A DNA stretch of 64,000 bases from Escherichia coli O157:H7. Lineage in GTDB: Bacteria > Pseudomonadota > Gammaproteobacteria > Enterobacterales > Enterobacteriaceae. The first letter of the stretch is position 1; each line of letters opens with the position of its first letter. The DNA is taken from NCBI RefSeq assembly GCF_013167455.1, contig NZ_CP038328.1; one strand, written 5' to 3'. This document shows positions 1,906 through 2,898 of the stretch, piece by piece. The position numbers and the translations under genes were made by a program. Under the pieces are notes generated by a model, which saw only the letters and a list, made by a program, of their open reading frames with translations, was not told the DNA's origin and ran no database searches.

Positions 1906-2044
1906 GAAGAATATTTTGCTGAAAAATGAGGTTTGCTTACATGGACGGATAACACGAAATCCTGCAAATTGGCAAAATGTAAGTGAATAAAGTCAAAACA
2001 GTTGTTTAACACTCAGGCACCGTAATGATGCCTTTGTCATTTCT

Positions 2045-2066
2045 GCGCATCTCACGCGCATCTCAC
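2045..2066. repeat. Tandem direct repeat 2 x 11 bp (GCGCATCTCAC) upstream of the antirepressor-like gene
   Basis: Exact duplication seen at 2045-2055 and 2056-2066. Confidence 0.8.
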
Positions 2067-2175
2067 AACACAGAACCTTTCAGGATGACCCTTGAGGATA
2101 CCGGTTTGGCTGTCGGTGCCTTTCTGTGGGCTGGATTCCTGTGAGACAAGGTTCATCACTAAAAGGAAATAACCG

Positions 2176-2745
2176 ATGAATATGATGGCCGTGCCGTTTC
2201 ACGGCAACTCTCTTTATGTAGTTAACCATAATGGCGAACCATACGTTCCCATGAAACCTGTCGTTGCGGGGATGGGGCTGGCCTGGCAATCACAGTTGGC
2301 TAAGTTAAGACAGCGTTTTGCGTCAACTATAACGGAAATCGTTATGGTTGCTGAGGATGGGAAACAACGCAATATGGTGTCCATGCCACTTCGAAAACTT
2401 GCCGGCTGGCTACAAACCATTAATCCCAACAAAGTAAAACCCGAAATCCGCGATAAGGTCATCCGGTATCAGGAAGAGTGCGACGATGTTCTTTACGAGT
2501 ACTGGACGAAGGGTTTTGTCGTTAATCCCCGTAAAATGAGCGTGATGGAAGAACTCAACCAGGCTTGTGCTGACATGAAACGGGATAAAAACATTGCCAG
2601 TGTGTTTGCTACCGGGCTGAATGAGTGGAAACAGGTTAAAGCCGCGCATGTATCAAAAATCCGTACGCTGGTAAATGAAGCGAATATGCTGATTGATTTT
2701 GTCCTGGCTGATACAGGCAAAGGGAAAATAACAAAGGCGGATTGA
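2176..2745 (+). CDS. Phage antirepressor-like protein (Bro-N / AntA-type N-terminal domain) inserted between endolysin and spanin genes
   Basis: 189-aa ORF; N-terminal region resembles phage antirepressor family proteins; the same R-ant-Rz arrangement occurs in other lambdoid prophages. Confidence 0.6.
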   Translation: MNMMAVPFHGNSLYVVNHNGEPYVPMKPVVAGMGLAWQSQLAKLRQRFASTITEIVMVAEDGKQRNMVSMPLRKLAGWLQTINPNKVKPEIRDKVIRYQEECDDVLYEYWTKGFVVNPRKMSVMEELNQACADMKRDKNIASVFATGLNEWKQVKAAHVSKIRTLVNEANMLIDFVLADTGKGKITKAD

Positions 2746-2898
2746 TGGGGTGGCTAATGATATCAGATAAACTCATAACGCTGGTGAAGAGCCTCTGTGT
2801 ACTTGTCGGCATTTCATTTTTAGTCATGCTGGTTGCCATTTTCTTTTCCACCGCCTGGCGAGTCCTGACGTTATCGGGACTGGTGGGGTGAAAGAGAG

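Follow-up and report, generated by a model that had tools for sequence, protein, structure and literature searches.

The stretch analyzed here (the window) comprises 64,000 nucleotides of contig NZ_CP038328.1 from Escherichia coli O157:H7, and its first 6.4 kb are late-region DNA of a lambdoid prophage of the O157 type. Along this region, small open reading frames (ORFs) of the DUF1378 and DUF826 types are followed by a pinholin, a lysozyme, a gap, the antirepressor-like gene ant, a 49-aa ORF, Rz/Rz1 and the terminase genes (Table 1). Our analysis centers on the gap and on the RNA leader that it encodes immediately upstream of ant. As judged from comparative sequence analysis, this leader is a member of a widespread, doubly pseudoknotted RNA family in which six helices stay paired as their sequences change. 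The leader is apparently undescribed, while the ant gene itself is ordinary and long annotated.

An initial annotation, made from the sequence of the window, had described a 189-aa ORF that separates the holin and endolysin from Rz/Rz1 and is preceded by about 270 bp of non-coding sequence. Both statements agree with our findings: the ORF occupies 2176-2745, between R and Rz, and the upstream region measures 270 nt (1906-2175). The antirepressor domain suspected in this ORF was confirmed by profile searches, which gave P22_AR_N (PF10547) with an E-value of 1.4e-45 and ORF11CD3 at residues 122-164 with an E-value of 5.5e-6. Similarly, the protein shares 50% identity over 127 aa with residues 10-136 of P22 Ant. 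The P22_AR_C domain, which is present in P22 Ant, was not found in the window protein by Pfam, and a search for homologues with a solved structure found none. The ORF11CD3 tail is common to Rha-type proteins that occupy the same genomic slot in other phages. We consider "antirepressor-like" a fair label for this protein, with the inactivation of a repressor only predicted and strict membership of the P22 Ant family not established.

The ant gene and its position are already known, being annotated in VT2-Sakai, VT1-Sakai, Stx2 phage I and many others, and ant has been listed among the genes of Shiga toxin (Stx) phages (PMC8136144). These records annotate the coding sequence of ant only; the leader is annotated in none of those examined. 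Over the interval 1372-3366, the window matches phages VT2-Sakai and VT1-Sakai with 100% identity and dozens of Stx1a and Stx2a phages with 99%; the ORF bears the name ant in all of them. Within the coding sequence, 12 nt past the ant AUG, we also observed a 6-bp GC-rich hairpin (GCCGUG..CACGGC, 2188-2205), which is specific to ant and lies outside the conserved leader.

The initial annotation had further regarded ant as a moron-like insertion, and the comparison with the related phage PhiR12_2 bears this out. PhiR12_2 contains the same R, 49-aa ORF and Rz without ant, and these flanks enclose an unrelated-looking stretch of other sequence, a filler of 258 nt, in place of the module. Because its alignment with the window breaks after 1999 and resumes at 2760, the inserted module is delimited to 2000-2759. 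The range proposed initially, 1906-2898, therefore encloses a real insertion together with conserved flanks that are not specific to it. In a blastn search with that range, matches H95-H100 were restricted to query positions 1-94, which correspond to the R-distal spacer.

Table 1. Features of the lysis region and of the ant leader, in window coordinates
Feature	Position	Strand	Basis or remark
Pinholin, S21-type	1152-1367
Endolysin R (R21-type lysozyme)	1372-1905	+	Phage_lysozyme, E 6.4e-25; named R in VT2-Sakai
R-to-ant gap, 270 nt	1906-2175
R-distal spacer, outside the inserted module	1906-1999	+	Also in ant-less phages; PhiR12_2 blastn alignment unbroken to 1999
Inserted module: terminator remnant, RNA leader and ant	2000-2759	+	Absent from PhiR12_2
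Weak hairpin GGCA-N9-UGCC with U-rich tail, degenerate rho-independent terminator	2016-2044	+	Aligns with terminators of relatives
Structured RNA leader (predicted), about 130 nt	2045-2175	+	From P0 to the base before the ant AUG; conservation begins at 2045 and ends at the start codon
Tandem repeat, GCGCATCTCAC twice	2045-2066	+	Tandem Repeats Finder
P0 hairpin	stem 2045-2048 / 2056-2059; loop AUCUCAC 2049-2055	+	First repeat copy and the next GCGC
PK1 pseudoknot	P0 loop UCUCAC 2050-2055 / GUGAGA 2141-2146	+	Top mutual-information pair
Helix A pseudoknot	CACAGAA 2069-2075 / UUCUGUG 2122-2128 (apical loop)	+	6 of 7 pairs altered on both sides (A4)
P1x	anti-SD CCUUU 2076-2080 / SD AAAGG 2162-2166	+	RNAalifold and MFE folds
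P1x-P1 junction pairs	AG 2082-2083 / CU 2159-2160	+
P1	GAUGACCCUUG 2084-2094 / CAAGGUUCAUC 2147-2157	+	Sequences wholly different between classes, still paired
P2	AGGA 2095-2098 / UCCU 2137-2140	+	97.8% paired, 3 of 4 pairs altered on both sides
P3'	CCGG 2101-2104 / CUGG 2131-2134	+	92.4% paired, 3 of 4 pairs altered on both sides
ant, 189-aa antirepressor-like protein	2176-2745	+	P22_AR_N and ORF11CD3 (Pfam); PHROG 524
49-aa predicted membrane ORF	2742-2891, likelier start ATG 2757	+	phrog_4906; part of the conserved Rz flank
Rz	2899-3366	+	Phage_lysis, E 4.9e-50; right neighbor
Rz1, embedded in Rz	3119-3304	+	Rz1, E 1.7e-21
SD, Shine-Dalgarno sequence; MFE, minimum free energy; A4, structure-anchored alignment described in the text.

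Fold and covariation of the ant leader

The predicted fold is built on a long hairpin formed by P1x, P1, P2 and P3', whose basal helix has the Shine-Dalgarno (SD) sequence of ant as its 3' strand. The anti-SD strand directly adjoins helix A, whose partner strand is found in the apical loop, and the GUGAGA segment forms a 6-nt bulge between P1 and P2 that is the partner of the P0 loop. The pairing of the SD with the anti-SD is the most invariant feature of the leader and is located at a fixed 6-11 nt before the start codon. Other helices vary widely in sequence. For instance, helix A appears in relatives as CUCAGAA/UUCUGAG, CCAAGAA/UUCUUGG, CCCCGAG/CUCGGGG, CGAGAG/CUCUCG and GAAAG/CUUUC, and the P2/P3' region as AGAAA/UUUCU, GGCAAA/UUUGCC and UAACCGG/CUGGUUA. 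A "proximal" hairpin (2099-2103/2114-2118), considered as the core P3, is missing from the minimal 124-nt variants, and the distal P3' was therefore taken as the core helix.

The comparison draws on 243 instances of the leader, representing 132 distinct sequences, which were collected by scanning IMG/VR twice for sequence patterns, by additional searches of phages and by a single scan across species-representative genomes. When mutual information was calculated on the class-1 alignment, a single column pair came out on top, connecting the variable base of the P0 loop with the variable base of a UGUG-N-GAC motif 85 nt downstream. The combinations in this pair were U-A (13), A-U (31), G-C (34), G-U (1) and C-G (1), so that every class-1 sequence pairs at these positions.

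Plain MAFFT misaligned the helices when applied across mixed classes; for this reason, structure-anchored and covariance-model alignments were used. The first of these, A4, is a scripted alignment of 25 diverse representatives. It leaves 95.9% of the cells paired, compared with 28-45% when the partners are slid by one to three columns, and 32 of the 50 pairs are altered on both sides. Its covariation score reaches 0.387 against 0.133 for shuffled alignments, a value attained by none of 500 shuffles. A4 leans towards structure, because its parser picked the registers that maximize pairing.

The covariance model was built from class 1 alone, with nested helices only and no information on pseudoknots. 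It recovers all classes (94 hits), and its only hit in the window spans 2033-2189 with 165 bits. Overall, 93.6% of the cells in the resulting alignment are paired, compared with 31-54% after sliding, and the covariation score is 0.332 against 0.126, again with 0 of 500 shuffles reaching it. PK1 is 96.1% paired in this alignment, all six of its pairs are altered on both sides, and its central pair occurs as GC in 55 sequences, UA in 18, AU in 7 and CG in 3. Helix A suffers from register slips here and is 71-83% paired; in an alignment-free comparison, its longest complementary run averages 6.8 between cognate strands versus 4.1 between non-cognate strands.

Minimum free energy (MFE) folding of the window leader and of six of eight other class representatives gives the same nested fold with the SD paired, in agreement with RNAalifold. 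G.U pairs account for 238 cells, and the U.G of P1x is present in 35 of 90 sequences. Given that such pairs are strand-specific, we conclude that the structure belongs to the sense strand.

No conserved leader peptide was found among the variants, since an internal ATG is missing in 56 of the 132 and the length differences are not multiples of three. The two candidates for a small peptide in the gap, a 39-aa ORF (2025-2144) and a reading frame beginning MTLEDTG at 2086, were rejected on account of ATG loss, frame-breaking indels and a stop codon that is not conserved. A PHROG match of the 39-aa ORF merely reflects ORF calls in the same phages, and the ORF has no Pfam match.

The tandem repeat noticed initially is exactly as described (GCGCATCTCAC, 2.0 copies at 2045-2066, 100% match by Tandem Repeats Finder), and by our estimate only about 0.015 exact adjacent duplications of an 11-mer would be expected by chance in 64 kb. 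The suggestion that it could be an operator, by contrast, is contradicted by the relatives of the leader. The repeat is perfect (11/11) in 3 of the 132 variants, identity between the two units is usually 5-7/11, and the units are not kept as direct repeats across the variants. The GCGC block, which makes up 4 of the 11 repeat bases, is the palindromic stem of P0, and the second repeat copy beyond its GCGC is the linker after this hairpin. In relatives, the stem halves change as complements of each other (GCGU/ACGC, GUGUC/GACAC, CGCGC/GCGCG). P0 is 99.7% paired in the covariance-model alignment, with 3 of 4 pairs altered on both sides, and all 4 pairs are so altered in A4, while the loop covaries with the segment 85 nt downstream. 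Compensatory changes in the stem, together with covariation of the loop, are therefore the signature of an RNA structure rather than of a direct repeat bound by a protein. On this comparative evidence, the perfect 11-bp repeat is a lineage-specific by-product of hairpin P0 and its 3' flank, and not a binding site.

As a separate observation, the linker after P0 contains CACAACA (2064-2070), which equals the GcvB R1 target consensus quoted in PMC4104026. This match is probably coincidental, because the other leader classes do not share it.

Distribution of the leader and its genomic surroundings

The leader is not confined to ant. A blastn search with the initially annotated range located the block 2045-2180 in P22-like Salmonella phages, a Lambdavirus and phage Dewey as well. 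In these relatives, the leader follows Rz and a rho-independent terminator and stands directly before unrelated genes; the conserved block begins exactly with the repeat and extends to the ant start codon, while the downstream genes differ. The classes comprise that of the window, a 933W-type class that precedes the same ant, the phi80/HK620 class (before phi80 rha and HK620 hkbK) and a minimal class of 124 nt. The leader thus occurs in textbook phages, including phi80, HK620, P22-like phages and both Stx1 and Stx2 phages. Its downstream cargo encodes proteins with KilA-N, Phage_pRha with or without ORF11CD3, KilA-N with P63C, HNH_3, T5orf172-like, ANT/KilAC and TerB-like domains, among others. 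Among the 220 instances with enough upstream sequence, the upstream neighbor is an Rz homologue in 112 and an endolysin in 21, and a GC-rich stretch with a T-run is found within about 50 nt upstream in 194 of the 243 leaders.

Of 5426 complete E. coli genomes, 879 contain window-type leaders; the median copy number is 3, and no genome has more than 10. True matches in the genome scan all belong to Enterobacterales, and about 13 matches in other phyla have none of the other features and look like chance. Some Stx2a phages carry two leader copies, one before ant and the other before a Rha gene after Rz. Within the window, no second copy was detected by pattern, regular expression or covariance model; a regular-expression match at 24830 was discarded as it lacks all other features.

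Several individual occurrences deserve mention. Actinobacillus phage vB_Apl-pPE4 (L126) bears copies at 591-726 and 2499-2640, of which one stands before a TerB-like gene, itself located upstream of the holins, and the other is 96% identical to the HK620 leader, unexpectedly close for a phage with a Pasteurellaceae host. Contigs from metagenome-assembled genomes labelled Cellvibrionaceae, Collinsella and Bacillota (L254, L269 and L289) bear leaders identical to those of E. coli phages and are probably mis-binned or contaminants. In phi80 (L128), a second, minimal 124-nt leader is found at 4087-4210, before an N15 gp59-like ORF near cos. The annotated start of phi80 rha (locus 2593) falls within the leader of that gene and is probably too far upstream.

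The sequences flanking the inserted module offer further observations. The 49-aa membrane ORF overlaps the ant stop codon and adjoins Rz also in the ant-less PhiR12_2 (L005, 2352-2483); because it is kept beside Rz even without ant, it may represent an unrecognized small component of the lysis cassette. No terminator-like site was found after ant, between 2745 and 2899. The 454 nt between Rz and the small terminase gene (3367-3820) contain no credible gene; in Lyz12581Vzw-type Stx2a phages, this slot holds the second leader copy and the Rha gene (L131, 2496-3184). Upstream of the lysis genes, on the - strand at 472-549, there is a weak match to Esr41, a small RNA family of enterohemorrhagic E. 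coli (29.6 bits against a gathering score of 102, E 0.01). This stretch includes a terminator-like hairpin at 481-493 and lies between an esterase-like ORF ending at 472 and the DUF1378 ORF (609). Its position corresponds to the "convergent anti-sRNA" slot of lambdoid prophages, as described for AsxR and AgvB (PMC4104026).

Transcription context, proposed role and alternative explanations

A consensus scan of 400-3900 found no sigma-70-like promoter on the + strand, and only weak -10/-35 candidates were seen by eye. When aligned, the segment 2016-2044 corresponds to the terminators (GCCTCG..CGGGCTTTTT) present in SE1Spa, Dewey and PDP110P1, and in many relatives P0 begins 2-3 nt past the terminator T-run. 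In most relatives, so few bases separate the leader from the terminator before it that no space is left for a promoter. The most likely situation is that the leader is transcribed solely within the Q-antiterminated late transcript, through read-through, given that the + strand yielded no promoter and that the leader is immediately preceded by a terminator or the remnant of one. The control of ant thus appears to be post-transcriptional, inside the late transcript. The control region postulated by the initial annotation exists in the sense that a dedicated region precedes ant, although it apparently operates at the RNA level and not as a DNA operator.

We propose, with a probability of roughly 0.6, that 2000-2759 is a late-operon moron consisting of ant and a dedicated RNA leader that acts in cis as a translational lock. 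The folded leader would keep the ribosome off the ant start, so that translation would be very low or would take place only once the fold opens. The RNA may adopt a compact "paperclip" in which the P2-P3'-A stack is folded back along P1-P1x, PK1 serves as a strut and the SD helix is clamped. A translationally silent ORF could be tolerable within the late operon, because Q-modified RNA polymerase resists Rho and hence Rho-dependent polarity. A search of the window for a trans-acting complement to the anti-SD strand gave matches at chance level only.

Several points weigh against a translational lock of this kind. P1x, the helix that pairs the SD, is invariant save for a C to U change that gives U.G, which is conservation without covariation. 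The covariation between classes rests on alignments guided by the parser or by the model. When the minimal class was aligned alone with plain MAFFT, 90.9% of the cells were paired against 33-50% after sliding, with non-significant covariation, most helix pairs being invariant within this class. The MFE z-score of the window leader is only -1.15, and some helices may be alternative states rather than simultaneous ones. Translational repression is deduced from the SD pairing, and the promoter scan was limited to sigma-70-like sites. In addition, a simple hairpin would be enough for constitutive attenuation, which leaves the complexity of the fold unexplained.

Other explanations for the conserved block were considered. 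The leader might mainly serve RNA processing or stability, as a target of RNase III or RNase E or as a structure that protects the 5' end. The cargo mRNA would in this way be separated from the lysis transcript, and its translation might even be activated by the cleavage. P1x and P1 together form a near-continuous duplex of 18-21 bp, a length comparable to that of phage RNase III sites, at an intercistronic boundary just after a terminator. We nevertheless regard this explanation as unlikely, given that no feature is more invariant than the SD/anti-SD pairing, with its fixed distance of 6-11 nt to the start codon, and that pseudoknots are atypical of RNase III sites. Somewhat harder to sustain is a sensor that opens the SD helix upon a signal, either a metabolite riboswitch or an RNA thermometer. 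Pseudoknots combined with an SD-sequestering helix are known from preQ1-II and SAM-II, and the SD helix resembles fourU thermometers in being short and rich in A-U, frequently with a terminal U.G. However, the C of CAG is the only conserved unpaired nucleotide of the core among 47 representatives, which argues against a small-molecule pocket; moreover, the cargo consists of regulators and nucleases rather than metabolic genes, and no Rfam riboswitch matches. A self-cleaving ribozyme of a new class would account for a compact, pseudoknotted fold with few conserved nucleotides, in a setting where small ribozymes are common and where part of the cargo encodes HNH or GIY-YIG-like nucleases. This is highly improbable, since no Rfam ribozyme model matched the 171 nt searched even at E <= 10, the topology is unlike HDV (helix A has its 3' strand within the P3' loop and C-G, not G.U, as its first pair), and the conserved SD pairing points to translation control.

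Two further explanations place the function in the DNA. The tandem 11-mers could be an operator and the gap could hold its own promoter, with ant as a self-contained unit expressed in lysogens. The repeat is real, its units are one helical turn apart, and classical morons, of which lambda bor is an example, carry their own promoters. We consider this very unlikely: all but 3 of the 132 variants lack a perfect repeat, the covariation of the GCGC blocks is that of an inverted pair rather than of a direct repeat, the loop changes in concert with a remote segment, no sigma-70-like site is present on the + strand, and in many relatives the hairpin begins 2-3 nt past the T-run of a terminator. The block could also be a linker for DNA recombination at a mosaic module boundary, devoid of RNA function, in keeping with its being joined to many cargo genes and at two positions, after R and after Rz. 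This explanation is highly improbable in our judgment, because the helices change their sequence and yet stay complementary, including segments 60-95 nt apart, and because the G.U pairs are strand-specific; a linker would need identity and not complementarity. The idea of a CsrA site was abandoned, as the second sequence class does not contain the GGA motifs. IsrK, sar and c4 were likewise dismissed as homologues, as no Rfam matches were obtained and the architecture of IsrK differs.

Beyond the translational lock, a more specific and tentative suggestion, which we hold to be possible without favoring it, is that the leader represents a regulated translational switch with two pseudoknots, of a class that would be new. 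By default, such a switch would silence its cargo within the abundant late transcript; a specific host or phage cue, for instance one connected with the dependence of phi80 rha on IHF, would release it, and cross-talk between prophages would be controlled in this way. The switch would travel together with genes of the antirepressor, Rha and KilA-N types among lambdoid, P22-like and Stx phages that infect Enterobacterales. If translation is gated as proposed, this would bear on the mutual induction of co-resident prophages, Shiga-toxin phages included, on the tolerance of "regulator" morons in late operons and on the old rha/IHF phenotype. If the switch were real, it would concern the control of cross-talk among the many lambdoid prophages of O157:H7. 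For RNA biology, the leader offers a small, testable pseudoknotted fold.

Comparison with known systems

No Rfam 15 family matched the leader at E <= 1 when 1-4500 was scanned, and a search of 2025-2195 (171 nt) at E <= 10 gave best scores of 11-14 bits against gathering thresholds of 41-57, with E > 2. A full-text literature search, with most subscription journals outside its coverage, returned no structured leader of rha, kilA or ant. For the gene itself, nothing differs from ant of the VT2-Sakai, VT1-Sakai and 933W group, which has the same S-R-ant-Rz order.

P22 Ant and the window protein have homologous N-terminal domains, and in both cases translation is under RNA-level control, which is predicted here. 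In P22, ant belongs to the immI region, with the arc and mnt genes and the sar antisense RNA; the window ant, by contrast, is located in the late operon, is accompanied by neither an arc/mnt gene nor a sar match, and has the ORF11CD3 C-terminus shared with Rha- and KilA-N-type cargo. In phi80, a leader of the same family lies directly upstream of rha (L128, 2501-2633). The record of this gene bears the remark "DNA synthesis inhibition in IHF- hosts", a phenotype consistent with a gene whose silencing is normally required. The work of Henthorn and Friedman from 1995 on phi80 rha and P22 orf201 is said to concern the protein and IHF, and not RNA structure.

The preQ1-II and SAM-II riboswitches and the S15 rpsO and S4 alpha operon operators resemble the window leader in being pseudoknotted and in holding the SD in a helix. 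Unlike them, the leader has no conserved ligand pocket and no Rfam match, and its cargo genes are mutually unrelated. The closest functional analogue, and a precedent for the gating of an antirepressor at the RNA level, is isrK-orf45-anrP of Gifsy-1, in which the mRNA of an antirepressor-like gene is produced yet stays translationally inactive, owing to an intramolecular leader structure that masks a ribosome-binding site (PMC4825925). IsrK has its own promoter, a trans-acting small RNA isoform delimited by a terminator and a coupled upstream ORF of 45 codons (PMC4825925). The window leader has no homology to this system and differs from it in having no internal terminator, no conserved upstream ORF and no Rfam match to IsrK.

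Finally, the module relates to the moron concept of Juhala et al. (2000), known here through its citation in PMC4104026. Like lambdoid morons, the window ant is an extra gene between conserved late genes that is absent from relatives. Unlike them, it has no promoter or terminator of its own that we could detect, and it carries instead an RNA leader that travels with varied cargo.

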